Shown piece by piece: positions 2-31,163 of a DNA stretch of 33,707 nucleotides (position 1 is the stretch's first letter; the number at the start of each line of letters is the position of its first letter). Below the pieces are notes generated by a model that had not been told where the DNA came from, searched no databases, and worked only from the letters and a program-made list of their open reading frames with translations. The position numbers and the translations under genes are program-made. Source of the stretch: Candidatus Woesearchaeota archaeon (GTDB lineage: Archaea; Nanobdellota; Nanobdellia; Woesearchaeales; J072); contig RFII01000037.1 in the NCBI GenBank assembly GCA_003695265.1, forward strand, positions 1 to 33,707, given 5' to 3'.

Positions 2-973
2 ACAGCACAAATCATCTACCTAAACCAAAACACAACCAACAACAAAACACCCCTAGAAATAACATACTCACAACCACAAAGCAAACAAGCAATATTCGTT
101 GCGCGGAAATCTGTAAGCTTTGAAGATGTTTGTGTGGAGACATGTGCTGTTAATTTCACTGACACAAATTATGAGGTGAGGTTTGAGGTTAGTAATGCCA
201 CTTTGCATATCATCAACATAAGCTACACAACAACACAGAATATTAGGGTTCCTGAAAACGTGACCTTAATAATCCAAGGCAACGAGACCATCTTCATAAA
301 CAACACTTTGCTAAACGCTTCCATAAGCGCGGGCTTAAAATCAATGCTGAATTACAGTGACATTGATGCCGGAAGCTTATGGGTCCTCTCAAAAATAAAT
401 GAGATTCAGCCTTCAAACGAGATAACCAGCAGAATAAATTATTATATGTATGATGAGTCGGATGAAGAGGCGCCGATTTTTAAGTTTATTAGGAAACAAG
501 AAATAACGAGTAGTGATGTTCCAGATAAGTTGTGGAGCATCCAATACACGTCCGACTTCCTAAAGGTGTGGATGTGCAGGTCTGAGCCGATTGATGAGAA
601 ATTCTTAGCAGGGCTTGAGCAGAGAACAGTAGAAAAGTTTGAGGAGTACAAGGACTTGCATGTCCTGCTCGCTTATGTTTGGGCAAAGGAGCTCGGATGC
701 TACGAACCAGAAGTGCTTGACCCGCTTATCAGTAAGAAAGTATCCGAGATACTGAGCAAGAGCACTGACGGCTTGTCGATTGACGTGGTTGCTGAGCGAG
801 CAGCTGTTGTTCAGTACGCAGGCTACCGGATACCACCAAGCCTTGTTGAATACCTGCTGGTAACGCAGAACATTGATGGCGGCTGGTCATCTGATATTGA
901 GAGCAGCTCAAATCCGCACACAACCAGCCTTGCTATTTGGGCTTTAGTACAATGGAGAGAGAATAATGAATAA
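2..973 (+). CDS. 5'-truncated surface/secreted protein with a C-terminal alpha-helical prenyltransferase/squalene-oxidase-repeat-like region
   Basis: The frame is open from base 2 (TAQIIYLNQNTT...FEDVCVETC), so the 134 start is internal. Many N-x-S/T sequons. The C-terminus has a QW-like motif LLVTQNIDGGW...HTTSLAIWAL. Overlaps the next gene by 8 nt. Confidence 0.65.
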   Translation, partial: TAQIIYLNQNTTNNKTPLEITYSQPQSKQAIFVARKSVSFEDVCVETCAVNFTDTNYEVRFEVSNATLHIINISYTTTQNIRVPENVTLIIQGNETIFINNTLLNASISAGLKSMLNYSDIDAGSLWVLSKINEIQPSNEITSRINYYMYDESDEEAPIFKFIRKQEITSSDVPDKLWSIQYTSDFLKVWMCRSEPIDEKFLAGLEQRTVEKFEEYKDLHVLLAYVWAKELGCYEPEVLDPLISKKVSEILSKSTDGLSIDVVAERAAVVQYAGYRIPPSLVEYLLVTQNIDGGWSSDIESSSNPHTTSLAIWALVQWRENNE

Positions 974-3900
974 GAGACTGGGAATATTTTGGATTATGGC
1001 ATTTTTTGTTCTGATTAGCTTGAAGAGTGTTATTCCCACGAACCCTACTTGTAATATTAATTCAGTTAGCATTTTATGCACGAACAGCTGCAAATGGAAC
1101 GTTGGTGAAGCAAAAAACGTAGGATGTTCTATAGATTGGGCCATGCCATTTCTTAGCATATGCACAGCTCCTGACGCAATTTGGACAGATAGAACTAGCG
1201 GGTCTTGGAGCATGATCCCATCTATTGACACGGACGTTGATTGCAACGGCGCATCATGCAAATATTCTCAAATACCGGACACAGCTTGGGAATACAAGTT
1301 GATTAAGTGCGAAAGCGCTGGCCAGTACCAAATAAGATGCAGTGATAAAGGAGGGGCTCATTACAGCAGCACTAAAACATTAACGTGCGTAGGAATCCCT
1401 AACGCAACGCAGGACAGTCCCCCAAATAGTTATATTGATACTGATGGCAATGTCACTTTTGTGTGTAATGCTTCAGCAACAAACAATCTGAAAAATATTT
1501 CATTAATCGGAAACTTTAGCGGCACTTTCGGCATTAACTCAACAAACATTGTGAGCGGAACTTTCAACACAACAAACTTCACCCTTGAAAACATTGCTGA
1601 CGGCGCGTATGTGTGGAACTGCAACGCTAGCGACAATGAGTCGAACTCAGACGTAGGGGACACGAATTACACCTTGTACGTTTACTGCAACCCACCTGCT
1701 GGAGGTGACTGGACGCCGCCTATTGGAGAAGGAAACGCCACTTGCCAAGATATTTCAGAAATGGTTAATTCCTTAACAATACCTTCAGGCCTCAAATTTG
1801 AGCTCATAAACGCTACAATAAACACGAAAAACCTTACAATCAAGCCAGGAGGCTCACTAATCATAAGAGATTCTCATAGCACTATTTGGCTTAACTCAAA
1901 CTTAACAGTGGAGGGAAACTTCACCCTTGACAATTCCACTATGCGCGTCAACAGCAGCTATAATGGTGAATACAACATAATTGTCCTGAGCGGCGGAAGA
2001 ATGATTGTTGCTAATAACAGCAACATAACAGAGGGCGAATTCACAAGCAATTACAGGTTCTGGGCTGAGTACGGCTCATACCTTGAAATAACAGATTCTG
2101 TTATTGAGGACGTGGGCTGGGATCAAAGCGGGTATCATAGGAATGAGAGCATATTCGTTAACTCGTCTGCTGTGATAAGAAACACGACTATCACAGATGG
2201 CTATGGCGGTGTGTATTTGGGACCCGGCTCAAATGGGAGCAACATAACAAACAACATTTTTGACCCGGGCTCAAGCGCTGGTATAACAGCAATTTTAGCT
2301 AACGGCTCCGGCTTCCACAACATTTCAAACAATTACATAACAGGATTTAATGCTGGAGGAAGCATCAGCATGCATTTCGTGAATTCTGACAACAACATTA
2401 TAAGTGAAAACACCCTCTATAATACAAGCAAGGCACCATCAGATGTTAAAGGGGTTGTATTCTTTAACTCAAACAACAACACATTTTTCAACAACAACTT
2501 AACTGATATTGGTGTCGGAGTATGTGCATCAGGGAACGGCTACGGCATAATAATAGACTCATCATACGGAAACCTAATAGACAACAACACGTTGTATGAC
2601 ATCAGCGAATGCAACGGAGTGTCATTCGGAATATTGGTTAATAACAGCGGCCAGAACAACACAATAAGCAACAACAACATAAACCAGACTGTTGATGATG
2701 GAATATACGTAACAAACTCAACATACACTTACATTTTGAACAACACTATTTTTAACACGAGCGATGACGGCATTGAGCTGATGCCGGGCTCTGACCACTC
2801 AAACATAAGCGGAAACACAATCATCTCGGCCAACATTTCAGGAATCGATATCTTGACTAATAATAGTGTAGTTTATAATAATTTCATTAATGGGGACAGT
2901 GACAGCACAAGCGGCTTAACCATCAGTAGCGGATCTAGTGTAGAGAATATTACCATAAGGGGCTTAACATTGGGCAATATAACAATTACGGCGATAAACT
3001 TGAGTGACAACAGCAATAACATAACAATAAGGGATGCGTATTATACAGATTCATCCGCAAATACTGGATTAAGTGTTAGAAGCAATGTATTAATGATTGA
3101 CTCAAACCCGACAGGATCGACAAACAACATAAGGTTTGTGTCTGGAACAGCAGCTAACCTCACCACAATTAATGTCACAGAAATCCCGGCTTCAGTTGAG
3201 GCAGGCCAGCACCACTGGAGGAAATGGTGGGTTTATATAACAGTGCAGGACGAGGCTGGAAGGCCGGTAGAGAACGCTAATGTGACTGTGTGGGACAAGG
3301 ACAATAACGAGGTTGAAAACTTCCTGACGCCGGCAGACGGCAGGAGAAATTTGAACCTTACAGAATACCATAGGTATTACAGCGGCGGAGAAGTTTACTT
3401 TTATTATTCTAATTACACAATCAATGCTACGAAGTACGGCTCGTTGGCATCTGAGAAAGTTAATCTTACTGGAAACATTAACTTAATATTGACTCTTCCA
3501 AATGATCCGCCATCAACGCCAACACCTTCATTAACAAGCGAGAACGGCACGAACACAACATTAGAATATCTCAACTGCTCAGCTTTGATAACAGATGCCA
3601 ATAATGATTCTATGAACGTAACAGTAAAATGGTATAATAATTCAGTTCTATGGATGACTGTTAACTACTTCAACAGCTACGCAAACGGCACACTATTCAA
3701 CGCAACACTCGCAAGCTCAAACACAACATTAGGAGACGTGTGGAGCTGCAGTATAATGCTTAATGACAGCATGAACGTATCAGCCTGGGGGAACTCAAAC
3801 AACGTGACAATAATAGACACAACACCACCAACAATAACATGGGAAAACCCAACACCAAACAACGCAACAATAACAAACAACAACTACGCATACCTAAACA

Positions 3901-6900
3901 CAACAATAACAGACACACACAACACCTCAGCATTCATCGACTGGAACAGGACATTGATCGGCTATTGGAGCATGGACGCATACAACTCAACAGGCATTTA
4001 CGACAACTCAACCTACACCCATTTCGCGGAATTCATAGGCATTAGCACAGCAAACATTACAGACGCGAAGTATGGGAAGGGGGTTGACCTAGACGGAACA
4101 TCTGATTACCTTAAAGTAAGTGAGGACAATTCCTTAGACCCTGGAACAGATAATTGGACCGTTGAAGTCTGGGCAAAACCCCCCAACTCAAACCAAAGAT
4201 CATTTATTATCTCAAAAAGAACACCTTCTGGCAGTTACGAGCAGTGGGGCATGGGAATATTTGACGCCACAACCAGCTTCCAAGCAGGGCAAAGGCTCAG
4301 ATGCTTGTGGTTAGGGCAGAGCGGTACAGGATACAGGTTTGCGCCTGCCTCAAACTCGGATGTTGCTGACGGCAACTGGCATCATTATGCCTGCGTCTTC
4401 GAGTATGGAAACACAATAAGAATGTACAAGGATGGTGTTGAATTAGCTTCAACGTTCCCTTATGGCGGAGGAACATGGGAATCTATGGACAATAGTGATC
4501 CGCTAGGAATTGGAAGTGATGGTTATGGCAATTATAAGTTTGCAGGCTCAATAGATGAGGTTAGAATTTACCGCAGAGCATTAAGCCCGGAAGAAATCAA
4601 CGCCTCCTACAACAACAACCTTCACAGGTTATACCACAACTTCACAGGACTAAGCAGTGGAACTTACAATTACACAGCATACGCGATAGACCAAGCAGGC
4701 AACCTCCAAATAACAGCAACGAGAAACATAACAATCGACACGACACCGCCAACAATAACCTGGGAAAACCCAACTCCAAGCAATGATGCCATAGTTACGG
4801 ATGAATATGTCTACCTAAACACGACAATAACAGACAGCACAAACACATCAGCATTCATCGACTGGAACAGGAGCCTTGTGGGGTACTGGAGCTTTGATGT
4901 GACCGATGCAACATATGTTTATGATAACTCATCATATGGGCACGACTTAACTTTTGAGGGAGGTCTTGGACAGGCAAATCTGACTCCGGGTGTGTATGGG
5001 AATGCGATAACGATGGATGGGGAAATCGGCATAAACGGCGACTACTTGAAAAGGCCGTTAAACCAAGACTTAAATCTTTCTAACACAAGTTTCACATTCA
5101 TGCTGTGGGTGAACCTGAGGGATACGGACGCTACAAGTTACGTCTTGACGTATGGAACTTCATCTCATACGTTTATGTACATTGGCGGCGGAGGAACGCC
5201 CGCCCTCAGAGTTGGGAACGGCACTGCCACGACAACGCTCGCGGCAGGAAGCGTGGCGAAGAACACGTGGACGCACCTTGCTTACCAGCTCGAGAAGGTA
5301 AGGGATAAGAATTTTACTATGAGAATATTCGTGAATGGAGTGCTTGCAGGCTCCAAAAGCACGACAATTGTGAACACCAACCCATATACTGAACCTTTAA
5401 GGCTCGGCTCTTATTATACTAATATTAATCATTTCAATGGATCTATGGATGAGGCCATGCTGTTCAGGCGCGCCCTCTCACCTGAAGAAATCAACGCCTC
5501 TTACAACAACAACCTTCACAGGCTCTACCACAACTTCACAAACCTTAGCAAAGGAACATATAACTACACCGCATACGCGATAGACCAAGTAGGCAACCTC
5601 CAAAAAACAGCAACGAGAAACGTGACAATTAACATTGTTCCTGCAACGCCAAGCCCAACATTAACAAGCGAGAACGGCACGAATTACACAACAGAGTATT
5701 TGAACTGCTCAGAAGTGCTAATTGATGGTGATGGGGATGCGATGAACGTTTCTGTCAAGTGGTACAACAACTCAGTTCTCTGGCTAACAGTTGATTACAA
5801 CAACAGCTACGCAAACGGCACACTATTCAACGCGACACTCGCAAGCTCAAACACTACAAAAGGCCAGAACTGGACTTGCGGAATGCAGACAAGCGACGGC
5901 TTAAACTCAAGCAGCTGGGCGAACTCAAGCGTTTTGATAATTGCGAATTCCCCACCAGTCATGCAGTCTCCAAGGATAGCGCCTGACCCTGCTTACACTA
6001 ATGACACCCTGCAAGGTTACTGTAATGCTACGGACGCTGACGGCGACACAGTCAATTATTATTATAAGTGGTTTAATGAAAGCGTGGAATTAAGCAGCGG
6101 CCGCGCAACGACAATGATAGAGGATGACACAGAAGACGCTGCTGCTTATGATGGTAATATCCAAAACCCAACTTATGCTTACGATGAAATATGGACTACT
6201 CGTGCAAAAGTATTAGGCCTTGGCGCTTCTGGAAACATTTACATCAATTACACAATCCCAAGCAATGTAATAAATGCGCAGCAAGAAGTCAAGTATACCA
6301 GCTCAGGCTGCAGCAACACTAATTATATATATTGTTATAATGGAAGCCAATGGATAATAATTGATTCGTGGTCAGGAATAATTAACACTATTAAGAATAT
6401 TTCATTAGACCAGAGCTGCATTGACAGCAATAACGGCGTTTTGGAGGAAAAGATTCATCTGGATTGTGATGTAAATCCAGGCCCAGAATCTTATTTCTTT
6501 GAGGAAAAGGTCTGGTGGAACAAATCAGTGTATTACACAGAGTCAGTAGAGAAGAACGTCAACAATTACACGCAAGCAGCGCAGCAGAAAGGCGAGAACT
6601 GGACTTATTCCTGCTTAGCATTTGATGGAACAGACAATGCGAGCAGCTGGGCAAATTATTCATTGATAATACAGAACCTGCCGCCAAACACAGTAACGCC
6701 TAGCATCACCAGCGAGAACGGAACTAATTACACGACAGAATACCTGAACTGCTCAGCCACTTTGCTGGATGGCGACGCTGATGCCATGAATGTCAGCGTG
6801 CTTTGGTACAACAACTCAGTTCTCTGGCTAACAGTTGATTACAACAACAGCTACGCGAACGGCACTCTTTTTAATGCAACGCTAGCAAGCTCAAACACCA

Positions 6901-7721
6901 CAAAAGGCCAGAACTGGAGCTGCGCTCTCAACGTAAGCGACGGCACGAACTACACATTGTCGCTTAACTCAAGCAACCTCACAATTGCTAATACGCCGCC
7001 CTCCAATGTCACTTTGATTTTCCCGAACAACGGCAATGACACACTGCTTGACAGGACTCCAACCTTTAACTGGAGCGCCGCAACTGACCCTGACAATGAC
7101 GTGATAAATTACACGCTAAATGTGACTTGCCCGACGTGCTCAGCAGAAATAAACGTAGTGGTATCAAACGACACTAATTACACACCTTCAATAGAACTTG
7201 ACCTTGACAAGGTGTATTATTGGAATGTAACCACTAATGACGGCACTGACTCGGGCGGAACTTCAGAGACATGGAATTTCACGATACTCTCAACGAGCAT
7301 AATAATGGTTAACGGATCGGTTAATTTCAGCAATATGCAGCTTTTGGAGTATGATAATACCTCAGATGACAATCCTCCTCCTTTTGTTGTTGAGAACAAT
7401 GGCAACGTATTAGTTAATGTTACTGTGTACGCTCAGAGCTCTCTTTGGGACACTGTTGGCTTGAACACCACTTATTTCATGGCAAAGGCTGACAACCACA
7501 CAGCAGAGCTCGGCTCGTTCAGGTACGACCTCTCGCAAACAACATACACTCCAATCCAGAACGTTACTTACAAGGAAAGGTACATCTCATACCTGAATTA
7601 TTCTGACTCGAACGACCTTGCCGAGCTAGACATTGCTGTCCAGGTTCCTGATGCGGAGCCTGCCGGCAACAAATCATCAGTACTAGTATTTGAGGCGACT
7701 GCCTCAGGCAATCCACCATGA
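966..7721 (+). CDS. Giant (2251 aa) secreted multidomain adhesin/surface glycoprotein: Cys-rich N-terminus, right-handed beta-helix repeats, Ig-like repeats, two LamG/ConA-like domains, C-terminal pilin-like domain
   Basis: Signal peptide; PbH1/NosD-like repeats (NNTISNNNI, GIYVTNS); LamG motifs (GYWSMD, WHHYACV, GSIDEVRIYRRALSPEEI) twice; DADGD-containing Ig-like repeats; dense sequons; no C-terminal TM anchor. Confidence 0.85.
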   Translation: MNKRLGIFWIMAFFVLISLKSVIPTNPTCNINSVSILCTNSCKWNVGEAKNVGCSIDWAMPFLSICTAPDAIWTDRTSGSWSMIPSIDTDVDCNGASCKYSQIPDTAWEYKLIKCESAGQYQIRCSDKGGAHYSSTKTLTCVGIPNATQDSPPNSYIDTDGNVTFVCNASATNNLKNISLIGNFSGTFGINSTNIVSGTFNTTNFTLENIADGAYVWNCNASDNESNSDVGDTNYTLYVYCNPPAGGDWTPPIGEGNATCQDISEMVNSLTIPSGLKFELINATINTKNLTIKPGGSLIIRDSHSTIWLNSNLTVEGNFTLDNSTMRVNSSYNGEYNIIVLSGGRMIVANNSNITEGEFTSNYRFWAEYGSYLEITDSVIEDVGWDQSGYHRNESIFVNSSAVIRNTTITDGYGGVYLGPGSNGSNITNNIFDPGSSAGITAILANGSGFHNISNNYITGFNAGGSISMHFVNSDNNIISENTLYNTSKAPSDVKGVVFFNSNNNTFFNNNLTDIGVGVCASGNGYGIIIDSSYGNLIDNNTLYDISECNGVSFGILVNNSGQNNTISNNNINQTVDDGIYVTNSTYTYILNNTIFNTSDDGIELMPGSDHSNISGNTIISANISGIDILTNNSVVYNNFINGDSDSTSGLTISSGSSVENITIRGLTLGNITITAINLSDNSNNITIRDAYYTDSSANTGLSVRSNVLMIDSNPTGSTNNIRFVSGTAANLTTINVTEIPASVEAGQHHWRKWWVYITVQDEAGRPVENANVTVWDKDNNEVENFLTPADGRRNLNLTEYHRYYSGGEVYFYYSNYTINATKYGSLASEKVNLTGNINLILTLPNDPPSTPTPSLTSENGTNTTLEYLNCSALITDANNDSMNVTVKWYNNSVLWMTVNYFNSYANGTLFNATLASSNTTLGDVWSCSIMLNDSMNVSAWGNSNNVTIIDTTPPTITWENPTPNNATITNNNYAYLNTTITDTHNTSAFIDWNRTLIGYWSMDAYNSTGIYDNSTYTHFAEFIGISTANITDAKYGKGVDLDGTSDYLKVSEDNSLDPGTDNWTVEVWAKPPNSNQRSFIISKRTPSGSYEQWGMGIFDATTSFQAGQRLRCLWLGQSGTGYRFAPASNSDVADGNWHHYACVFEYGNTIRMYKDGVELASTFPYGGGTWESMDNSDPLGIGSDGYGNYKFAGSIDEVRIYRRALSPEEINASYNNNLHRLYHNFTGLSSGTYNYTAYAIDQAGNLQITATRNITIDTTPPTITWENPTPSNDAIVTDEYVYLNTTITDSTNTSAFIDWNRSLVGYWSFDVTDATYVYDNSSYGHDLTFEGGLGQANLTPGVYGNAITMDGEIGINGDYLKRPLNQDLNLSNTSFTFMLWVNLRDTDATSYVLTYGTSSHTFMYIGGGGTPALRVGNGTATTTLAAGSVAKNTWTHLAYQLEKVRDKNFTMRIFVNGVLAGSKSTTIVNTNPYTEPLRLGSYYTNINHFNGSMDEAMLFRRALSPEEINASYNNNLHRLYHNFTNLSKGTYNYTAYAIDQVGNLQKTATRNVTINIVPATPSPTLTSENGTNYTTEYLNCSEVLIDGDGDAMNVSVKWYNNSVLWLTVDYNNSYANGTLFNATLASSNTTKGQNWTCGMQTSDGLNSSSWANSSVLIIANSPPVMQSPRIAPDPAYTNDTLQGYCNATDADGDTVNYYYKWFNESVELSSGRATTMIEDDTEDAAAYDGNIQNPTYAYDEIWTTRAKVLGLGASGNIYINYTIPSNVINAQQEVKYTSSGCSNTNYIYCYNGSQWIIIDSWSGIINTIKNISLDQSCIDSNNGVLEEKIHLDCDVNPGPESYFFEEKVWWNKSVYYTESVEKNVNNYTQAAQQKGENWTYSCLAFDGTDNASSWANYSLIIQNLPPNTVTPSITSENGTNYTTEYLNCSATLLDGDADAMNVSVLWYNNSVLWLTVDYNNSYANGTLFNATLASSNTTKGQNWSCALNVSDGTNYTLSLNSSNLTIANTPPSNVTLIFPNNGNDTLLDRTPTFNWSAATDPDNDVINYTLNVTCPTCSAEINVVVSNDTNYTPSIELDLDKVYYWNVTTNDGTDSGGTSETWNFTILSTSIIMVNGSVNFSNMQLLEYDNTSDDNPPPFVVENNGNVLVNVTVYAQSSLWDTVGLNTTYFMAKADNHTAELGSFRYDLSQTTYTPIQNVTYKERYISYLNYSDSNDLAELDIAVQVPDAEPAGNKSSVLVFEATASGNPP
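3510..6990 (+). repeat. Three dispersed ~300-bp intragenic repeats (about 3510-3810, 5640-5945, 6680-6990) encoding Ig-like modules
   Basis: TSENGTN..EYLNCS...WYNNSVLW.TV.Y.NSYANGTLFNATLASSNTT occurs three times. 5760-5812 is identical to 6804-6856 (53 nt). 3671-3724 and 5801-5854 differ at one base. Confidence 0.9.
3813..5630 (+). repeat. Tandem ~0.9-kb duplication (3813-4733, 4734-~5630): Ig-like frame with an inserted LamG domain
   Basis: Both units start IDTTPPTITWENPTP...TSAFIDWNR and end RRALSPEEINASYNNNLHRLYHNFT...YAIDQ.GNLQ.TATRN. The flanks are similar at DNA level and the cores are divergent. Confidence 0.9.
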
Positions 7722-8944
7722 GCAGAACAACATTAAACAGGAATTGCATGCTTGTCTTGGCAGCTTTTGTTATGCTGTTTGCTCTGGCAGGCCAAAGCCT
7801 CGCCCTTGGCGTTGCGCCAACGCAGAAAGTCATTGACTTTGAGCCCGGCCAGACAAAAGAAGTTAAAATCCAGATAATCAATGACCAGCAAAAAGACTTC
7901 AAAGCCATAGTTTATGCCAGGGGTGAGATGGCAAATTATACTAATATTAGGGACAGCTTAGTAACAGTAAAGGCAAATGAGAAAATGAAGGAATTCAGGT
8001 TTAATGTGAGTATGCCAAGCAGCATAGACAAGCCCGGAGACCACGAAGTAGAGATAGTTGTTTTGGAATTTGGCGATGACGTGGAAGAAAAGGCTATTGT
8101 GACGGCAAGGGTCGCGGTTGTGTCAAAGCTTATTGTTCGCGTGCCCTACCCTGGAAAGTACGCAGACGCAAAGCTTTTCATAAACTCTGCAAATGTGAAC
8201 GAAACTGTCACTTTCAAGGTGCCTATTTATAATTTTGGCGATGAGGCAATTGAAGAGGCTTGGGCTGAGATACAAATATTGGGAGCAACGTATGAAGTGA
8301 TAGGTAAAGTTGAGACAAACAGAATAAGGCTAGAGCCAAAATCAGAGAACAGCGTCAAGGCTGGCTGGCTTGCGGATGTGAACGCTGGGGTTTATCATGC
8401 AGTTGCCATAGTTCATTATGATGACAAAACAGTGAGGGTTGAGGAAAACTTTGAGGTTGGGAACCTTCTTGTTGAGGTTGAGAACGTGATAGTTGATGAG
8501 TTCAGATTAGGGGAGATTGCGAAGTTTGATATAATTGTGAAGAACACGTGGAATGAGCTGTTAAAAGATGTTTATGGCGATGTTAAGGTTGTTGATGAGA
8601 AGGGAAGCATTTACACGAATTACAAAACAGCTTCTATTGACATTCCCGCTTATTCGAAAGGTGTGCTTGAGGCTTACTGGGATACAAAGGAAGCGCAGAT
8701 AGGCAAGTATGACCTTGACATAACACTGCATTACAAGGGAAAGACAAGCAGGAAAGTGATTGAAACCCATGTGAATATTGACTCAATAACAACGAAGAGG
8801 ATGCCGACAGCCGAAGTTGTTGGAGCAAAGAGTGGTGCAGGGCCAGAATTCATAAAGCAGAATTCAGTGCTAATAATTTCAGTGATAATCCTTATTATTA
8901 TCAATATTGGCTGGTTCATTTATTTTAAGAAAAGCAAGAAATGA
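7718..8944 (+). CDS. Membrane-anchored multi-Ig-fold surface protein (PapD/DUF916-like N-terminus); paralogue of 9935..11110
   Basis: Signal peptide, then LGVAP..VIDFEPGQTKEV; three beta-rich domains; C-terminal TM helix with a Lys tail. ATGA overlap with the giant gene. Confidence 0.7.
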   Translation: MSRTTLNRNCMLVLAAFVMLFALAGQSLALGVAPTQKVIDFEPGQTKEVKIQIINDQQKDFKAIVYARGEMANYTNIRDSLVTVKANEKMKEFRFNVSMPSSIDKPGDHEVEIVVLEFGDDVEEKAIVTARVAVVSKLIVRVPYPGKYADAKLFINSANVNETVTFKVPIYNFGDEAIEEAWAEIQILGATYEVIGKVETNRIRLEPKSENSVKAGWLADVNAGVYHAVAIVHYDDKTVRVEENFEVGNLLVEVENVIVDEFRLGEIAKFDIIVKNTWNELLKDVYGDVKVVDEKGSIYTNYKTASIDIPAYSKGVLEAYWDTKEAQIGKYDLDITLHYKGKTSRKVIETHVNIDSITTKRMPTAEVVGAKSGAGPEFIKQNSVLIISVIILIIINIGWFIYFKKSKK

Positions 8945-9049
8945 GGTTGCATATAAGGTTGTATAATAAGGTTTTTATTTTTATATAGAAGATATATAGA
9001 AAAATTTATATATTAAGCATAACAAAATTTTTAATTAAGCAGTAAAAAA

Positions 9050-9274
9050 ATGGTGAGTGAAATAAAAGACAGGGAGAAAAAGATATTTATTACTTTAATA
9101 ATTCTTACAATAATAGTTTCTGTCCTAGGAACAGTGATGCTTCTCGAAGTTTCAATGCAGCCTAAACCTAAGACAAACCAGCAGGTCGGCTATGTCACAA
9201 TAGAAATACTGCCTAATCCGAACAAAGCTCCAGACCAGAGAGTGGTTGAGAAAGAAAACCATCAGCCTGGATAA
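9050..9274 (+). CDS. Small membrane protein: one TM helix plus a single beta-strand (VGYVTIEI)
   Basis: TATA-like TTTATATA at ~9005. The N-terminus resembles that of 9290..9910 (IFITLIILTIIVSVLGT vs MIITLLIVTIIVSLGGT). Confidence 0.7.
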   Translation: MVSEIKDREKKIFITLIILTIIVSVLGTVMLLEVSMQPKPKTNQQVGYVTIEILPNPNKAPDQRVVEKENHQPG

Positions 9275-9289
9275 AATGAGGTGTCATGA

Positions 9290-9910
9290 ATGAGAGAGTT
9301 TTCAAACAAGATGATTATTACCCTACTTATTGTCACAATAATTGTTTCTTTGGGCGGCACTCTTATCAGTATAAGTCGCTTGAGCCAGCTAGAGCTTATA
9401 ACTGGAAAGGTTACTGTTGGAAACGTAAGCGTTAATATTACAGAACAAGCAACTCTGAATCTTACCACACCAAACATTGATTTTGGCAATGGATATGTAA
9501 CAGGAGGGTCTAACTGCACTATTAACAGCCAAGATGGAACTGGCTCAAGCACGTGCTGGAGCAACACAGGTGTAGGTGCTAATAGTGGTATAGTAGTTGA
9601 GAACATAGGAAATGTTGGAATCAATGTTAGTGTAACATTTGCTAAGAACGGAACAGATTTTATAGGTGGAACAAACCCTGAGCTAAAATACAAATGCAGG
9701 ACTGATGGAAGCAGCAGTGGAACATCAAGGGCAAGCTCATTCACATTAGTTGACAATACATCCTTGACTTATGAGTGCTGGGCAAACCTCGCTCCAATGA
9801 GCAGTTCTGACTCTTTTTATTTTGATATTAGTTTAAACATACCAGACAATGCTCAGGGGTTAAAGAATAATACTATAACATTCACCGCTGCCAAGAATAT
9901 GACGGGTTAA
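9290..9910 (+). CDS. Secreted single-domain beta protein, candidate major fibre subunit
   Basis: Strong SD (GAGGTG); N-terminal TM, ITGKVTVGNVSVNI strand, IDFG, VVENIGNV, C-terminal DISLNIP...GLKNNTITFTA; four Cys. Confidence 0.75.
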   Translation: MREFSNKMIITLLIVTIIVSLGGTLISISRLSQLELITGKVTVGNVSVNITEQATLNLTTPNIDFGNGYVTGGSNCTINSQDGTGSSTCWSNTGVGANSGIVVENIGNVGINVSVTFAKNGTDFIGGTNPELKYKCRTDGSSSGTSRASSFTLVDNTSLTYECWANLAPMSSSDSFYFDISLNIPDNAQGLKNNTITFTAAKNMTG

Positions 9911-9934
9911 ACCCGTTAAATTCTGGGTGTTTGA

Positions 9935-11110
9935 ATGAAAAAGATTGTTTGTTTTATTGTATTTCTCATATTTGCTCAAACAGCTTTTGCAATAGGCATC
10001 GGTGGCTCAGAGCTTAATCCGAGTGTTGTTTTTGAGCCGAACCTGAATCTTAAGTATTCTTATCAAATCATAACAACTTTATCAGAGCCAAGCGATTATG
10101 AGGTTTATGTCAAGATGGGTAAAAATGATAATATTGACCTGACAAAATATGTTACTATAGAACCCACAACCCATTTTTCTAATGTTAAACCTGGAGATAA
10201 CCCTTATTTTACTGTTAAGGTAAATCTTCCCGAATCAATTGAGGAGCCAGGTTACCATTCCATTATTGTTGGCGTTGTGGAAGCGGAGACACAAGGAGGA
10301 GCACTTAATTCTAGGACAGCGGCAGAAACATACATAACAATACTGTCACTTTTCCCTGGCAAGCTTCTTAAGTCACAAGTTTCTGTTCGCAACACCAATG
10401 CTGATGAGGAAACAGAGGTAAAGGTTAATGTCCAAAACTTAGGAGAGGAAACAATCAATTCTGTAAAGGCAAAAATCCAGGTTTTTGACTCAGATAATAA
10501 TGTTGTGAGAGAATTAACAACGAAGTCAATATCATTGGGCCCTGGAAAGAAAGATGTCATAAAAGAGCCGCTTAGCGTTCAGGGCTTACAGCCTGGTGAG
10601 TACAGCGTAAAGGCTTTTATAACTTATGACGGGAGAGAGGATTCTGCAGAGAACACATTTAAGATAGGTGAGCTTTCTGTCAATATTGTTGATTATTCTA
10701 AGGTATTTTATTCAAACCAGATAAACGAGTTTAACATTCAGGTTGAAAGTGTTTGGAACCATCATATCAAGGATGTTTACGCAGAGGTTATTGTTGAGAA
10801 TAAAAGGGTAAAGACACCAACAACGAGCATTGATCCGTGGCAGAAAAAGATAATAACAGGGTACTTTGACACAAGAGGCATAAAGCCGGGCACTTACGCT
10901 GGACAAATTATAGTCCATTTTAATGGAAAGACAAGCTTAAAGGATATTCAAGTGCAGATAGTGCATCCAAGAGAGGTTGAAAGCCCAAGAGAATCTGCCT
11001 TAAAGAACATAAGCCTCACAGTGATTATGATTGCAGTTGTTGGAATACTCGCAATAATTGATTTGGTGTTTATTCTTGCAAGGAAGAAACAGGACAATAA
11101 GAAAAAATGA
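9935..11110 (+). CDS. Membrane-anchored multi-Ig-fold surface protein; paralogue of 7718..8944
   Basis: Shared motifs VFEP, P.SI..PG.H, V.N.G.E.I, F.IG.L.V, F.I.V...WN...KDVY; C-terminal TM helix and basic tail. Confidence 0.7.
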   Translation: MKKIVCFIVFLIFAQTAFAIGIGGSELNPSVVFEPNLNLKYSYQIITTLSEPSDYEVYVKMGKNDNIDLTKYVTIEPTTHFSNVKPGDNPYFTVKVNLPESIEEPGYHSIIVGVVEAETQGGALNSRTAAETYITILSLFPGKLLKSQVSVRNTNADEETEVKVNVQNLGEETINSVKAKIQVFDSDNNVVRELTTKSISLGPGKKDVIKEPLSVQGLQPGEYSVKAFITYDGREDSAENTFKIGELSVNIVDYSKVFYSNQINEFNIQVESVWNHHIKDVYAEVIVENKRVKTPTTSIDPWQKKIITGYFDTRGIKPGTYAGQIIVHFNGKTSLKDIQVQIVHPREVESPRESALKNISLTVIMIAVVGILAIIDLVFILARKKQDNKKK

Positions 11111-11517
11111 GAAGGCTTGTTCTGATTTTTATAGTGGGTGTGCTTTCTATAATATTAACTCTTTTTCTTTACAGCTTTTACAGTGTTGCTTTTGTGAAGT
11201 ATGTTCCGATGAGTGTTGAAGTTGGCAGGGGGGTTGGGTTCAGCCTTGACACAGACATCCTGGACTTTGGGAAAACATTTCCAGGAGGCGTTCTGTCAAG
11301 GGAGATAATTGTAAGCCACAACGTGGATGAAAGGCTGAAAGCACGTATAATTCCCACAGGGGAGATTAAAGACTGGGTTTATTTGTCAGATAATAATTTT
11401 CATTTAGCAAAGAATGAGGTAAGAAAACTGGCTGTTTTTGTTTATGTTCCTAAGAACACATCCTTTGGGAATCATACAGGCACGCTTAGAGTGTTTTTCC
11501 AGAGAACAATAACATGA
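11107..11517 (+). CDS. Small TM-anchored beta protein, candidate minor fibre subunit
   Basis: N-terminal TM, YVPMSVEV strand, LDFG motif, C-terminal VYVP.....G..TGTLRVF. ATGA overlap with the upstream gene. Confidence 0.7.
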   Translation: MRRLVLIFIVGVLSIILTLFLYSFYSVAFVKYVPMSVEVGRGVGFSLDTDILDFGKTFPGGVLSREIIVSHNVDERLKARIIPTGEIKDWVYLSDNNFHLAKNEVRKLAVFVYVPKNTSFGNHTGTLRVFFQRTIT

Positions 11518-11597
11518 TATATCTAAAACATATCATTATGATATATAGTTAATAGTTATTTAGTTCTATTTGGAAATATTTATATATCATTTTGATA
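11514..11597. promoter_or_regulatory. Putative operator array and promoter of the RHH gene
   Basis: Inverted repeat ATATCAT-T-ATGATAT (11530-11544), another ATGATAT at 11514, and TATCA-TTT-TGATA at 11585-11597 next to TTTATATA (~11579). Confidence 0.5.
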
Positions 11598-11609
11598 CTA
11601 ATAGGATAT

Positions 11610-11795
11610 ATGGATGAGCTTATTCACGTACGCGTTGGCAGAGAGTTAAAGAGGCAGATGCAAAAACTGATTGATTTGGGTCTTTTTTCCAATCAGGCAG
11701 AGATTGCACGCGAGGGCATAAGAAATCTTCTCTTAAAATATAACAAGGAAATAGTGGAAGCCTTAAAAAACAAAAATGGAAAGAATATCAAATAA
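11610..11795 (+). CDS. Ribbon-helix-helix (CopG/Arc/MetJ-like) transcription regulator
   Basis: LIHVRV strand, helix, then GLFSNQAEIAREGIRNLL, matching the archaeal RHH pattern G.f.s.SE.iR.aiR.ll. ATG at 11610 preferred. Confidence 0.8.
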   Translation: MDELIHVRVGRELKRQMQKLIDLGLFSNQAEIAREGIRNLLLKYNKEIVEALKNKNGKNIK

Positions 11796-13488
11796 CCGCA
11801 TAGCTTTGATAGCAATAATAATAATGTTTATATCACTTTTAACTAATTGGATGATCATTTACACGACAAAACAGCAGATTCCTGTAGGAGCTGTCACTAA
11901 AGGAAAAGTAAGCATATGCATAAATGAGCCTCCGGAGCTAAGTGTTCCCTGCAACAATAAAGGGTATGTTGGTTGCAGGTATTATTGTGATGCTGATGCA
12001 ACAGACCAGTTCAGCACAGAGTTTTATTTTAATGATGACACTGATTTATTTGACATAAATGAGACAACAGGAATTATTGACTTCACTCCTGTTGAGAATG
12101 AGAGTGGGAATTATTCAATCAACATCAGTGTTAGCGAGCCTGCCAACTGCTCTAATAATGAGAGCTCACAAATATTAAACCTTTCAATTTCAGCCAATGT
12201 TTGCGGAGACGGAATTTGCGTAGCGCAATGCGGGGAAAACAGAAGAACGTGCTCTGCTGACTGCGGCAGCAGCTCAAACCAAGCAGCCGGAAGTGGAGGA
12301 GGCGGTGGGGGCGGTGGAGGAGCAATTCCCTCTCCTGACCAGTTGGACGCGCTTCCGTCATTTGACTTTGACCCAGAGCTTTTGAAAGTGTTCTTAAACA
12401 TTGGGGAAGTCCAGGAAAGGCAGGTTGTTATTTCGAACACAGGCACAAAAGACATTAACATAAATATTGAGTTAGAGCAGCTGCAAAAATATGTTTCCTT
12501 ATCAGAGAATGAGTTCTTCCTGCCAGTGGCAGCATCAAAAACAATCAGCATAAAATTCGATGCAAAAAACACCCAGCCAGGAGTATACACGGGAAATTTG
12601 GTTTTCACATCAGGCATTGTGAAGAAAAAGCTTCCCATAATTATTGAGATAGAGTCAGTTGGGATTAAGCTTGATTTAAGAGTTTCAATTCCAGAAGAAT
12701 TCCAGATGATTGAAAAAGGAGAAGATATTGCAGCAAAGATTGCGCTCTTCAACATGGGTGACAAAAAAGAGATTACTGTCAGCCTGAAATACGGCGTAAA
12801 AGACATGAATGATATGGTAATAGTGTCAGAGCAGGAAGACGTGCAGCTCACAACCTCGCTTGAATTGCTGAAAAGGCTTGATTTGCCGTATGACATCAAC
12901 AAAGGAAACTACGTTTATTTTGCAGAGGCCATTTACAAAGACAAGAAATCAGTAAATGGTAAAATATTTGAAGTGGTTGAGGAAACAATAAGGGAAGAAG
13001 TCCCATCACCTGTAAGAGAGGACCTTAACTCAGATAAGCTGCTATCAGACATTGAGCAAAGGTTCAGCAAGCAGATGCTATTGTTCTTATTAATTTTAAT
13101 ATTGATAATAATAAACGTGTCGTACTTCACGTACAGGAAGCTAACAAGCATTGAAAAAGAGCACGCAAAGCACGCAGGAGAAAAAGAGAAGGAAAAAATA
13201 AAAGATGAAAGGAAAGAGGCAAAAAAGGACAAAATAATAAGAATATTATCAAAAGCATCAGAAACAAAAGGCAAAAGGAAAGAAAGACAGGCAATAAGCA
13301 AGATAAAAATAAAAAGGAAAGTGAAAGAAAAAGAAGAAGCATTATTAGAAAAGAAGAAGCTTGAGAGAAAAGCCGAGACACTGAAGAAAAGCTTCAAATT
13401 AAGGTATATAAGCAAACAGTCGTACGAGAAAGGAATAAAAGAAATAAACGAGGAGATAAGAAAGCTGAACAGGAAATTAAGGCAGTAA
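11776..13488 (+). CDS. Membrane-anchored surface protein: N-terminal TM and strand, cadherin/Ig-like domain, Cys motif, poly-Gly linker, Ig-like domains, TM, Lys/Glu-rich cytoplasmic tail
   Basis: GAVTKGKVSICI after the TM; LFDINETTGIIDFTP; CGDGIC...GE...TCSADC; Gly run; second TM; charged coiled-coil tail. Confidence 0.75.
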   Translation: MERISNNRIALIAIIIMFISLLTNWMIIYTTKQQIPVGAVTKGKVSICINEPPELSVPCNNKGYVGCRYYCDADATDQFSTEFYFNDDTDLFDINETTGIIDFTPVENESGNYSINISVSEPANCSNNESSQILNLSISANVCGDGICVAQCGENRRTCSADCGSSSNQAAGSGGGGGGGGGAIPSPDQLDALPSFDFDPELLKVFLNIGEVQERQVVISNTGTKDININIELEQLQKYVSLSENEFFLPVAASKTISIKFDAKNTQPGVYTGNLVFTSGIVKKKLPIIIEIESVGIKLDLRVSIPEEFQMIEKGEDIAAKIALFNMGDKKEITVSLKYGVKDMNDMVIVSEQEDVQLTTSLELLKRLDLPYDINKGNYVYFAEAIYKDKKSVNGKIFEVVEETIREEVPSPVREDLNSDKLLSDIEQRFSKQMLLFLLILILIIINVSYFTYRKLTSIEKEHAKHAGEKEKEKIKDERKEAKKDKIIRILSKASETKGKRKERQAISKIKIKRKVKEKEEALLEKKKLERKAETLKKSFKLRYISKQSYEKGIKEINEEIRKLNRKLRQ

Positions 13489-13553: not shown

Positions 13554-13874
13554 ATGGCAAAAAAAACAAGCATGTCAAAACCAGAGATGAGGAAAAAGGA
13601 AAAAATGCTTAATGAAGCGCTTCTTGACCTCGACAGAGAGATAGAGTCATTAAGAAGGAAAAAAGCAAATCTTGAAACAGAAGTAGAAAACATTGCTGAG
13701 GACATAAAGCAAACGCAAAGCGAAGAGCGGCGCTTAAGAAGGCAGATTTCTAGATTAGTCCAGAAAGAGGACGAGCTTAATACAAAGAAGGACAAGATAA
13801 AAGAAAAGTTAGAGCTGCTTAAAGAAAAAATGGCTCGCGTGGCAAAAATAAAAGATGAGCTGCGAGAAGTTTAA
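13554..13874 (+). CDS. Small coiled-coil hypothetical protein
   Basis: SD AGGTGA, TATA at ~13499, heptad-rich charged sequence. Confidence 0.7.
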   Translation: MAKKTSMSKPEMRKKEKMLNEALLDLDREIESLRRKKANLETEVENIAEDIKQTQSEERRLRRQISRLVQKEDELNTKKDKIKEKLELLKEKMARVAKIKDELREV

Positions 13875-22544: not shown

Positions 22545-23807
22545 ATGAAAGGACAAAGTCAGGAGATTCCTAGGTATGAAGTAAAAAGCCAAGATGAAAG
22601 AAAATACAAGAAAATTGAGAGGCTATTAACATATAATGGAAAAGTTTCTAGAGACACGCCACTGTCAAGAGACCTTTCAAGGCTGGTTAGCCTGAAAGGA
22701 AAAACACCTCTTGCAAAGCAGCTTGGCAATGGTGTGAGTAGGCTTGAGGATTCTCTTGTAAGAAGAATGCTCAGAGGAGAGCACTTATTTGAGGAAGGAA
22801 GCGCTGAATGGCTTTTAGCTAAAGCTGCCTTATCAATAGCTGCTGAGGAACAGCAAGGAAAAAGAGACCTCGGAACGCCCGAGCTGATACACCCATTTCT
22901 TATCGCAAGAGCAGCAGTCGCGTATGATCTTGGATTAGTTGGGTTGGTTTCTGGCCTAACACATGACATTGGAGAGGAGGTTATCAAGGCAGAGCACTCA
23001 GACATAAACCCAGAGCAAATAATGAATGGTGTCAACAAAAGAATTCTGGAAGAAATGGAAAAAAATTTGGATAGATATATTCCTAGGAAGAAATGGGCTG
23101 AGATTTCTAAAGTGTTAGATGATGCAGCAACGATTTCGGCAAGACTAACAAGAAGATTAAGTGAGCCTTATCACAGTTACATAGTTGGAGCGCTACATAA
23201 TTATTATGAAGGAAACACGTTTAATCCGCGATTGGCTTATGTAGCTGCAGTCTTAAAATATTTTGATAGGTTATTTAACACCCTAGATGTTGATTCTGTC
23301 GGTGAAGAAAGCCTGCTTGACCCTAAAAAAAGGTTCAAGCTTATTGCAAAAAATATTTTACTGGAAAACGAGACGAGAGTGCTTAGGAATAGGAGGGATT
23401 TCAAAATAGAGGACCGGCTAAATAAGAATTTAGCTTTTTTAGGGCATACAATCTTATATTTTACTGAGTTAGAGGCTGCAAAGTGGATGGGGCATATAAG
23501 AAAGTATTTGCCAAGAAGTTATAATGCTGCAGAAACAGACGAGTGGATTCAGGAATTTGAGCGCAGGGGTGGCTTTGATAAAAGGACAAGGAAGAGGCCT
23601 GCAAAACTTGTTGCTAAGTACCCTTGGCTCAGATTTCATGGAAAGATGAATTATGTGAGGGGTCATTTCAGAGGAGAGCATGACTTGGAATTATTGGAAG
23701 ATAGCATTGAATTGTATGAGTCAGTTTATGCTATGCGAAGAGCAGCCCAATTAATGTATGTTGAGCCACATAGGATTATTGATAACCTAACAGGAGACAG
23801 TGGCTGA
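22545..23807 (+). CDS. RelA/SpoT-type HD hydrolase (SAH/Mesh1-like) with N- and C-terminal extensions
   Basis: QGKRDLGTPELIHP, LTHDIGEE, LTRR and KYFDRLFNT occur in the order of the RSH hydrolase motifs R..G.PY..HP, LHD..ED, LT, K.aDR.hN. Confidence 0.75.
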   Translation: MKGQSQEIPRYEVKSQDERKYKKIERLLTYNGKVSRDTPLSRDLSRLVSLKGKTPLAKQLGNGVSRLEDSLVRRMLRGEHLFEEGSAEWLLAKAALSIAAEEQQGKRDLGTPELIHPFLIARAAVAYDLGLVGLVSGLTHDIGEEVIKAEHSDINPEQIMNGVNKRILEEMEKNLDRYIPRKKWAEISKVLDDAATISARLTRRLSEPYHSYIVGALHNYYEGNTFNPRLAYVAAVLKYFDRLFNTLDVDSVGEESLLDPKKRFKLIAKNILLENETRVLRNRRDFKIEDRLNKNLAFLGHTILYFTELEAAKWMGHIRKYLPRSYNAAETDEWIQEFERRGGFDKRTRKRPAKLVAKYPWLRFHGKMNYVRGHFRGEHDLELLEDSIELYESVYAMRRAAQLMYVEPHRIIDNLTGDSG

Positions 23808-23851
23808 AACCCCACAATATTATTGCATAATTGCTAAAAAATAATAATAAA

Positions 23852-29367: not shown

Positions 29368-29889
29368 ATGGTATTCATAAGTGATATTATTGGAAGAGAA
29401 AAGCTGGACGAAGTCGTTGAAATGGTTTTAAGAAGCCCATGGCACATTATTGACGACTTGATGTCCAGTCTCTTAACAACAAAGCGGAACAGGACAAGAA
29501 TCCAGGCAATTGTCTTGCCGTATGACAGTGAAGTGCTTGTTTATTCATGCAGGATAAGGCATGATGACAGCTCATCTGCAATTGGCCGATTAAACAAAGT
29601 GGTTGAAGAAAGCAGAGATATTACAAAAATAAGAGTGGATGAATCAGTGTTTGAAGCATTGAGAGATGACTCGGCATACAACTTGTACCCCTTTGATGAG
29701 GAAGCAGGATTATACCTTAGAAGATGCGAACTGCCGGAAGGCGCTCAGAGAAGGGAAAGCAAACAGTTTTTTTGCATGGGAATAGCAGAGTTCGGAACGC
29801 TCAGAGGCTGCTGGGTTAACAAAATGGTTTACACTCCAGACCCGGAAAGATACAGAATAAAGTCAAAAAGCAAGCTCACTTGGGATTAG
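29368..29889 (+). CDS. Hypothetical protein
   Basis: 173-aa ORF divergent from Lrp with an AT-rich promoter; no motif recognised. Confidence 0.6.
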   Translation: MVFISDIIGREKLDEVVEMVLRSPWHIIDDLMSSLLTTKRNRTRIQAIVLPYDSEVLVYSCRIRHDDSSSAIGRLNKVVEESRDITKIRVDESVFEALRDDSAYNLYPFDEEAGLYLRRCELPEGAQRRESKQFFCMGIAEFGTLRGCWVNKMVYTPDPERYRIKSKSKLTWD

Positions 29890-29894
29890 ATTAG

Positions 29895-30653: not shown

Positions 30654-30782
30654 TTGAATTTTTTCTCAGAAGAAATATTTAAGAATTTCTGTAAATTTGC
30701 TGTTAATAATCTTTTGCAGCACCAAAATGCTTAAATATTAGTTGTTATTGTAGAATGGTAATAACCAATGGGGTGGTTTTGT

Positions 30783-31163
30783 ATGAATCACAAAGCACTG
30801 TTTGTCACTTTAATTTTTGCGTTTTTGATGATGTCAGGGTTTAACCGCGGCGGATTAAACGTTGGAAGAGTTTATGGCAATTCTCTCAATGACGAATTCG
30901 AGATTTTAGTGAATTCTCACAGCGTGTCAAGAAACTTTGAGGATATGTCAATGCGAGTTTACATACCTGAGCTTGACCTTGTTTTTCCGAGGAGAATGTT
31001 CCGCTTCAGCTCGCACGACTGCTGTAATGGAGACAAAAGGCTTTCAACGCACTTCTTTTCTTATGATAAGAAGAAAACGCCTGACTGCTTTCATGTGAGA
31101 ATAAGCTTGAGGGACAGGAGAAGTTCAAAGCGCGACGTTGATTACGCGCTTGTCTGCCTGTAA
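30783..31163 (+). CDS. Small secreted or membrane-anchored beta-rich protein
   Basis: Signal/TM segment followed by beta strands; start 30768 or 30783. Confidence 0.6.
   Translation: MNHKALFVTLIFAFLMMSGFNRGGLNVGRVYGNSLNDEFEILVNSHSVSRNFEDMSMRVYIPELDLVFPRRMFRFSSHDCCNGDKRLSTHFFSYDKKKTPDCFHVRISLRDRRSSKRDVDYALVCL

Follow-up and report, generated by a model that had tools for sequence, protein, structure and literature searches.

The design of a pilus in which membrane-anchored chaperones guide the exchange of donor strands between subunits has so far been described in bacteria. For the Elr pilus, the ElrA/ElrD/ElrB layout was shown by cryo-electron microscopy and pull-down experiments, and in the available part of that report the Elr/WxL system is given as occurring only in Bacillota among 4,698 RefSeq genera (10.64898/2026.10.17.759780). 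For the Pam pili of bacteria of the Candidate Phyla Radiation, a PamT/PamA/PamR layout was proposed (PMC13278184, available in part). Here we describe a gene cluster on contig RFII01000037.1 of a Candidatus Woesearchaeota archaeon (GCA_003695265.1) that probably builds an adhesive, thin fibre on the cell surface by chaperone-guided donor-strand exchange. The window that was analysed is the whole 33.7-kb contig (33,707 nucleotides) of a 1.06-Mb assembly of 103 contigs that is 94.6% complete. The system is real, conserved and, in the literature searched, undescribed for archaea; no description of such an archaeal cluster was found, most subscription journals lying outside the search. The mechanism is a prediction that draws on the homology and domain layout of the proteins, on their predicted folds, on covariation, and on the co-occurrence and order of the genes.

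A preliminary description of this DNA had named seven open reading frames (ORFs) and quoted motifs from them, and all of these were found where it had placed them. The proteins, designated here by the first position of their genes, appear from sequences and models to sort three ways: 966 has a groove only, 9290 a strand and a groove, and 9050 and 11776 a strand only, next to two WxLIP-like membrane proteins, 7718 and 9935. As far as the accessible text of the Elr report goes, Elr/WxL pili likewise have a tip adhesin of variable payload with a C-terminal, acceptor-only pilin domain, a small pilin that has a donor strand at its N-terminus, a membrane-anchored chaperone with WxLIP-like domains, a strand-only subunit with a C-terminal anchor, and no usher. 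The strand consensus of the 9290 family, T-x-G-x-V-x-V-x-I, is similar to the consensus [S/T]-x-[G/A]-x-[V/I]-x-F that is given there for Elr donor strands (10.64898/2026.10.17.759780). The two systems differ in that the Elr anchor is of the LPxTG/sortase type (optional in that paper) whereas 11776 has a membrane helix, in the three immunoglobulin (Ig)-like domains per chaperone and the two chaperone paralogues, tied to adhesin and pilin, that are found here, and in the extra 9050, 11107 and coiled-coil genes and the archaeal host.

The Elr survey, in its available part, was a screen at Pfam cut-offs, which the 7718, 9935 and 9290 proteins fail: of the pair PF06030 and PF11797 that the survey asks for, 9935 passes PF11797 only and 7718 neither. 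Other markers used for Elr are present, since 9935, WxLIP-like and with a C-terminal helix, is encoded next to the pilin gene where a distance of 10 kb was allowed, and 966 is a tip adhesin of more than 500 amino acids (aa) with a C-terminal pilin domain (not PF13731) and no donor strand. An LPxTG sorting signal was not seen in the translations of the cluster, nor matched by Pfam. Formal WxL membership was rejected for lack of PF13731, of PF06030 above the cut-off and of LPxTG; by the criteria of the Elr paper the cluster is not a WxL operon, but it is predicted to work like one. The Pam pili, compared by their description only and as far as that was available, share with the present system an ultra-small episymbiont, two chaperones with C-terminal helices, an acceptor-only tip, a terminator with a strand and a C-terminal helix (PamR) and the lack of an usher. 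Their pilins have two domains with an internal linker strand whereas 9290 has a single domain, and PamT is a single small domain instead of a giant adhesin.

The gene at 966..7721 (+ strand) encodes a giant secreted adhesin of 2,251 aa, the predicted tip subunit. It comprises an N-terminal hydrophobic segment, a beta-helix, Ig-like repeats, two LamG/ConA-like lectin domains, an FN3-like domain and a C-terminal pilin-type domain; Pfam matches are PF13385 (E 1e-49, two stretches) and PF13229 (E 6e-15), and there are 145 N-glycosylation sequons. Its last domain (7287..7721, + strand, residues ~2108–2251), which ends on strand F, had been proposed to match the mature domain of 9290. This homology was confirmed: in a comparison of hidden Markov models (HMMs) with HHalign, the last 144 residues match 9290 at 99.5% (E 1e-22, 142 columns), and a profile made from an alignment of 129 homologues of 9290 finds the C-terminus of 966 in its own genome at E 1.5e-15. 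Pairwise BLASTP is marginal (26% over 116 aa, E 0.004–0.011 in an 8-sequence database). The match begins at the position of the donor strand of the pilin, and in our reading of the sequence this place is held by the final strand of the preceding FN3-like domain, so that the adhesin would have a groove but no free strand. The earlier statement that it has no membrane anchor of its own stands for the C-terminus, as a hydrophobic helix was found in the last 200 residues of none of the 27 adhesin-type proteins whose C-terminus is present, but not for the N-terminus, where the hydrophobic segment is a candidate for cleavage. Homologues of the C-domain, 32 of which were aligned, occur in 33 of 61 genomes of the order. 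ORFs labelled as adhesins vary from 181 to 3,384 aa, although three among the shortest are in fact pilins with a wrong label; complete adhesin ORFs vary from 308 to 3,384 aa. Motifs in 966 reveal duplicated blocks (residues 849, 954/1261, 993/1300 and 1907), with two LamG modules between near-identical flanks and repeated Ig-like modules, seemingly pointing to recent internal duplication; a BLAST self-comparison listed no internal repeats, which is attributed to a tool setting since the blocks are visible by motif.

The candidate major pilin, 9290 (9290..9910, + strand), is a protein of 206 aa with an N-terminal helix, a conserved T-G-x-A motif at residues 38–41, a donor strand and an Ig-like domain without strand G. 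The AlphaFold2 model, calculated with an alignment, has a predicted local distance difference test score (pLDDT) of 89.6 and is Ig-like; its last strand, 196–202, ends the chain on strand F, and residues 37–55 are unpaired yet confident (89 and 96 for blocks 41–50 and 51–60). A complete monomer without an open groove, named beforehand as the outcome that would speak against strand exchange, is thus not what AlphaFold2 predicts. In the donor strand (9413..9442, + strand, residues 42–51), G44, V46, V48 and I50 alternate, with sequons N45 and N49, two of the nine in 9290, on the opposite face. G44 is conserved in 92% of the pilins, and columns 46, 48 and 50 are hydrophobic in 91–100%. Homologues of 9290 form 1,018 clusters at E<=0.001; where named, by their protein labels, its relatives are Woesearchaeota or Pacearchaeota, except that one of 120 rows reads 'Bacteroidetes bacterium', and the Atlas places it in clusters of Nanobdellota/Woesearchaeota.

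A comparison of this model with TasA, AbpA and Csu had been proposed, and all three are among its best Foldseek matches, each of them weak. The first ten rows hold TLP-1a/b, the Sulfolobus thread (Saci_0406), TasA, FimG (twice), Csu, CupE, AbpA and Hyper2, with CanA also among the best. VIA-align gives Z values of at most 7.1–7.2 (Hyper2, CanA, CsuA/B, FimG); TasA (Z 6.4, root-mean-square deviation (rmsd) 3.3, 126 residues aligned) and AbpA (Z 6.2, rmsd 4.4, 120 aligned) are tied with unrelated rows. The alignment to solved pilins spans residues ~50–204, and the matches to the model show a compatible fold, not a function. In the Atlas, the best annotated neighbours are WxL (TM score 0.64) and the TasA family (0.56–0.60), all below the bar for family naming. 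WxL was absent from the fold matches in the PDB, but ElrD may post-date the structure library, so this is not evidence. A PDB sequence search with the pilin profile returned nothing at E<=5, PF12389 was matched neither by 9290 nor among the families listed for its homologues, and no type IV pilin was among the listed fold matches. Like 9290, the archaeal fibres (threads of Saci_0406, AbpA, Tafi, CanA) and Bacillus TasA have an incomplete Ig-like subunit with an N-terminal strand, the structural matches being weak. Tafi, in its available description, also has a LamG adhesin at the tip; 966 matches the TafC family NF052521 through its LamG part only and far below cut-off.

Covariation suggests where the strand goes. 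Inverse-covariance couplings were calculated from 332 pilin sequences (effective number 262, rows with >=20% gaps dropped), and the leading pairs include C76–C89 as well as residues in contact across modelled strands, which shows that the method picks up signal. For residues 42–51, the best diagonal runs parallel to 59–68 (mean z 1.31; V48–F65 z 5.2, T51–N67 z 4.8), and an antiparallel register with strand F (191–200) ranks fifth of 208 diagonals (mean 0.91; I50–K192 z 4.9); V48–F65, I50–K192 and T51–N67 rank 21, 25 and 27 of all pairs. When the rows of the strand block were shuffled, none of 40 trials reached 1.31 (range 0.26–0.78), and in a control that keeps kinship, 29 windows within residues 1–38 gave 0.38–0.78. 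In 20 half-alignments, which are not independent of the whole, the parallel register ranked first to third in 16, and the antiparallel one was within the first ten in 13. In donor-strand pilins, strand G is flanked by two strands that match the coupled positions 59–68 and F. Since the coupling of L56 to A200 lies at one end of the domain and that of I50–T51 to K192 and N67 at the other, and four linking residues cannot span both ends, the contact is probably one between chains, and the monomer would have an open groove because the register seems unattainable within one chain.

The candidate membrane-anchored chaperones are A, 7718 (7718..8944, + strand), which has a signal peptide, a C-terminal helix and, judging from its homology to 9935, three Ig-like domains, and B, 9935 (9935..11110, + strand), with three Ig-like domains and a C-terminal helix at 361–390. 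They had been called two paralogous membrane-tethered Ig-fold proteins, which the comparison upholds (25%, E 7e-31). PF11797, the WxLIP host-binding domain, is passed by 9935 by 0.5 bits (29.4 against a cut-off of 28.9), and 7718 matches PF11797 (E 4.9e-5) and PF06030 (E 0.027), both below cut-off; at E<=0.01, PF11797 is found in 11 of 29 7718-type proteins, in which it is the commonest Pfam match, and in 2 of 24 9935-type proteins. The top VIA-align match of 9935, out of 48,161 chains searched, is WxLIP of Enterococcus faecium (9i1y, Z 13.5, rmsd 10.2, 219 aligned, residues 18–246), the only one of the first five rows that spans domains 1 and 2, in agreement with the earlier assignment as a membrane chaperone. 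The proteins CfaA, YadV and SafB, which we take to be pilus chaperones partly from the titles of structure entries, score Z ~10 against 9935, and a PDB sequence search with the chaperone profile gave CARDB-type Ig matches only. In the AlphaFold2 model of 9935 (pLDDT 90.5), a lower-confidence loop precedes strand 129–138. The candidate G1 donor segment comprises residues 124–138 (10304-10348, + strand), where columns 124, 130, 134 and 136 are hydrophobic in 95–100% of 65 sequences (100% for column 124, within the low-confidence loop). Such a pattern of hydrophobic columns is expected for a G1 donor strand from PapD and Caf1M.

Gene order was counted in 60 regions picked around chaperone matches on longer contigs, and the counts are conditional on that choice and on the HMM labels. 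An adhesin gene lies within two genes upstream of chaperone A in 40 of 44 cases (crossed context 2/44), and a pilin gene directly upstream of chaperone B in 42 of 48 (crossed context 1/48). On a quick tree of 95 chaperones these contexts cluster, with 4 and 8 changes against ~31 in shuffles (0/500 as low); the basal split has a support of 52 and many branches are long, so the tree does not show a strict split into two types. From fold and gene order we infer that 7718 goes with the adhesin and 9935 with the pilin. It could be argued that no chaperone is involved at all, and that the cluster builds a donor-strand fibre of the TasA/AbpA/thread/Tafi kind with 7718 and 9935 as Ig-domain anchors or platform proteins. 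Fibres of archaea and Bacillus that need no chaperone are indeed among the nearest solved folds of 9290, tandem Ig domains have matches in many unrelated proteins, and threads and Tafi differ from the present system in that no chaperone is assigned to them in the available parts of their descriptions (PMC9715654, PMC11821415). Even so, we regard this option as distinctly improbable, given the WxLIP match across two domains of 9935, the prevalence of PF11797 among 7718-type proteins, the position of each paralogue right behind its own groove-bearing gene with contexts that cluster apart on the tree, and the open groove of the monomer that the covariation implies. Tafi further differs by Tat export and a peptidase in the operon, in the accessible part of its report, as opposed to the Sec-type N-termini and WxLIP-like proteins found here (PMC11821415).

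The co-occurrence and synteny that a functional unit should display were found. Among the 61 genomes of the order, the 7718 family is present in 36, the pilin profile in 36 and both in 35, with 24 having none of these. Of 251 near-complete genomes from across the phylum, the chaperone is present in 143 and a pilin-type domain in 126 (E<=1e-8, adhesin C-domains included), of which 125 have both and one the pilin only; 107 have neither. Two of the 143 genomes (G276 and G277) are unpublished and chaperone-only, and no conclusion rests on either. Usually the adhesin gene is followed by that of chaperone A, a 9050-type gene, one to three pilin genes, the gene of chaperone B and then the 11107-type and 11776-type genes, in one block or two. 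Some genomes (G108, G236, G156, G111 and G248) have 7 to 11 pilin-profile matches, suggesting expanded pilin repertoires, and a tandem of two adhesin-chaperone pairs is seen in regions L031-L032. In several relatives a gene of ~155–170 aa lies between adhesin and chaperone A (L143 8759-9259, L150, L159, L160, L165, L167, L168, L172); its product has an N-terminal helix, an FN3-like domain and a tail that is pilin-like but much shortened and contains the motif I-T-G-x-A internally, and it is not found in this window. The distribution also bears on the possibility that the locus is an S-layer or general envelope cluster of glycosylated Ig-fold proteins, in which the shared strands are mere secretion or folding motifs. 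Heavy glycosylation, with the sequon numbers of 9290 and 966 given above, would fit, and S-layer candidates of DPANN archaea are glycosylated Ig-fold proteins according to the available part of a recent study (10.1101/2023.10.27.564410). Since the cluster was not found in 107 of the 251 genomes, since it has strand-only and groove-only members, and since the strand covaries with the groove edges, we give this explanation very little credence.

Of the strand-only proteins, 9050 (9050..9274, + strand) is a peptide of 74 aa with an N-terminal helix and a donor-like strand (9188-9208) but no folded domain. The similarity of strands after the N-terminal helix that had been pointed out in 9290, 9050 and 11776 was borne out, as the helix and strand of 9050 match those of 9290 (HHalign 97.8%), and a donor-like pattern follows the helix in 26 of 32 positional equivalents of 11776, compared with 6 of 84 controls, which were proteins with a single helix at the N-terminus. 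Genes of the 9050 type lie directly before a pilin gene in 29 of 30 cases, a circular count since that region was used for the labelling; two donor-like strands occur in 19 of 30 homologues, one in 9050 itself. The peptide may serve as an anchor, a terminator or a cross-linker. The protein 11776 (11776..13488, + strand, 570 aa) has an N-terminal helix, a donor-like strand (11902-11922), an Ig and Cys-rich payload, an ASH/PapD-like domain (weak Pfam matches to ASH/Cep192/HYDIN at 208–284), a second helix and a basic cytoplasmic tail. It lacks a pilin acceptor domain, the pilin profile matching its N-terminus only, and the second helix is found in 31 of the 32 equivalents, a set in which one protein is truncated and at least one was picked wrongly. 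This makes 11776 the likeliest base anchor or terminator.

The remaining small protein, 11107 (11107..11517, + strand, 136 aa), consists of one Ig-like domain, anchored by a helix and with F as its last strand, and had been regarded as a shorter relative of 9290. That relation holds only in part: HHalign gives 92% to the adhesin C-domain and 95% to domain 1 of 9935 but 53% to 9290, and a G-type donor pattern occurs in 3 of 46 homologues. The gene directly follows chaperone B in 40 of 49 cases, and its structural matches in the Atlas are mixed. A G-x-[KRYH] motif opens strand F in 46 pilins, 23 adhesins and 34 11107-type proteins; 9290, the adhesin and 11107 end ~14–15 residues past it, so 11107 would lack strand G as well. 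Its assignment is ambiguous between a minor pilin or adaptor and an accessory chaperone-like domain. Of the roles proposed earlier, base anchor thus suits 11776 best, while those of 11107 as minor pilin and 9050 as anchor are tentative.

In the proposed mechanism the subunits would be exported by Sec and N-glycosylated, and signal peptidase I would cut the N-terminal helix off 9290 near T-G-x-A. Judging from fold and gene order, 9935 may fill the groove left by the missing strand G of 9290 with its G1 segment, and 7718 may do likewise for the adhesin C-domain. The adhesin, having a groove without a free strand, would start the fibre and end up at its tip; 9290 would be added from below, with residues 42–51 inserted into the preceding subunit's groove, until 11776, which brings a strand and a C-terminal membrane helix but lacks a groove, halts elongation and serves as the anchor. 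In an accessory role, 9050 and 11107 could donate strands or act as adaptors, and the lectin and beta-helix payload would bind glycans on another cell or surface. Chaperone-usher pili (Fim, Pap, Csu, CFA/I) are similar in their G1-strand chaperone, predicted here, their A''-F groove and their tip adhesin without donor strand, and FimG, CsuA/B and the chaperones CfaA, YadV and SafB are among the fold matches; they differ in having an usher and PapD, which are not matched here, and the chaperones are membrane-anchored in our case. These archaea have no outer membrane, unlike the Gram-negative hosts of chaperone-usher pili. A chaperone-usher pilus was rejected because neither an usher nor a PapD family is among the Pfam matches of the nine ORFs scanned. 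A type IV pilus or archaellum was rejected as well, on the fold matches and because the secretion ATPases (PF00437) of this genome lie on five other contigs and none on this one; the signal class was judged by eye. The earlier remark that the window lacks a type IV pilus ATPase and an usher gene is thereby sustained, for the usher within the ORFs scanned.

Several observations weigh against the assembly of such a pilus. The best Foldseek E-value of 9290 is 1.2e-3, with none at E<=0.001, and its fold matches tie with non-pilin ASH/PapD-like domains of ciliary proteins; neither PF13731 (also when looked for in 9290) nor, at E<=0.001, PF06030 was found in this genome, and among the 25 families listed for 129 homologues of 9290 there is no WxL match at E<=0.05. 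The WxLIP match of 9935 has an rmsd of 10.2 and exceeds matches to single Ig domains by less than 1 Z, in Foldseek WxLIP comes 26th, after ciliary proteins with ASH repeats, and the third Ig domain of 7718 and 9935 has no counterpart in ElrE. The covariation is modest, kinship inflates the signal, and pairs such as E52–K202 and T38–I125 do not fit. Furthermore, 18 of the 143 chaperone-positive genomes (8 with strong and 10 with weak chaperone matches) lack a pilin-type match. Finally, the predicted cleavage site of the pilin lies 10–13 residues beyond the helix, and a signal peptidase gene is found inside the cluster in only 1 of 60 regions, which means that the helix may stay on; removal of the pilin N-terminal helix is the weakest step of the mechanism.

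If the helices of 9290, 9050, 11107 and 11776 are not cleaved, strand complementation could operate without a long fibre, the four proteins staying in the membrane as short stalks or as a membrane-hugging chain on which the adhesin docks. The N-terminal segment of the pilins is indeed long, strongly hydrophobic and well conserved, 9050, which shares its N-terminus with 9290, makes most sense uncleaved, and adhesins of up to 3,384 aa could project unaided. Peptidases speak on both sides. The in-operon S26 peptidase of TasA/SipW-type systems is absent from this cluster, but three S26 genes are present in this genome, all on other contigs. Besides the usual archaeal signal peptidase, two of these are paralogues of an extra S26 family (L182 1285-1764 and L183 1291-1770, on contigs C98 and C92), and the single in-cluster S26 gene (region L160, 12349-12816, + strand) lies between the 11107-type and 11776-type genes. 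The extra family occurs in 45 of 61 genomes, in 30 of 35 cluster-positive and 15 of 26 others (Fisher p 0.02, kin not being independent); it is enriched with the cluster but not dedicated to it. As expected for a processing motif, 61 of 67 pilins have T-G-x-small after the helix, against 2 of 46 11107-type proteins and 17 of 84 controls. The second, C-terminal helix of the 11776-type proteins is needed only if the first is removed, and the end-to-end geometry of strand exchange would direct subunits away from the membrane. On balance, stalks of this kind seem unlikely, and a chaperone-assembled fibre with a processed pilin is preferred.

Two features had not been noticed before. A 61-aa ORF (11610..11795, + strand) overlaps the start of 11776, has a similar counterpart at the same position in region L048 (8370-8534), presumably resembles ribbon-helix-helix regulators and is a possible autoregulator. 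Downstream, 13554 (13554..13874, + strand, 106 aa) encodes a cytoplasmic coiled-coil protein and is a probable accessory gene; all nine homologues in the 60 regions directly follow an 11776-type gene (one of them labelled '?PIL' but with the layout of 11776), and a possible partner of the protein is the cytoplasmic tail of 11776, which is long, basic and helical. A 279-aa ORF at 134-973 (+ strand) overlaps the start of the adhesin gene; it has eight sequons, no Pfam match and, we presume, a C-terminal motif like that of prenyltransferase/squalene-cyclase repeats, and it was not found in the 60 related regions. Elsewhere in the window, two long ORFs (420 and 849 aa; 22545-26380, + strand), the first with an HD-like motif, are unlike the neighbouring housekeeping genes in style, and a 252-aa ORF (29895-30653, - strand) with a C-terminal coiled coil lies beside other unannotated ORFs (29368-31163). 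NCBIfam named none of the eight cluster proteins scanned, one beta-helix repeat in 966 being just above cut-off, and a scan for sigma-70 promoters and terminators was at chance level, archaeal promoters being outside its models. For positions 7700-11600 the listing contained no RNA holder, a result with no bearing on expression.

A role in host attachment may be proposed from the lectin and beta-helix payload and from the symbiotic lifestyle that is generally assumed for this archaeal group; an abiotic or biofilm role is an alternative. To our knowledge, most Woesearchaeota and Pacearchaeota have no known host, and for their attachment the cluster is a candidate organelle in half of the sampled genomes, whose tip, swappable and equipped with lectin domains, lends itself to expression and to screening against glycans or candidate hosts. 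A more far-reaching reading, which we offer as tentative and rather doubtful, is that about half of the phylum builds a chaperone-primed pilus that is truly, if remotely, homologous to WxL/Elr, with separate chaperone lineages for the swapped tip adhesin and the shaft pilin, membrane peptides with two strands that clamp or bundle two fibres, and a swappable tip as a main determinant of host or prey in each lineage; such a division of labour, if true, is not described elsewhere. If the predicted mechanism is true, archaea would possess a chaperone-assisted pilus pathway, next to the threads and Tafi fibres for which the available descriptions assign no chaperone, and the Elr/WxL design, reported as confined to Bacillota in the accessible part of that survey, would extend to another domain of life.

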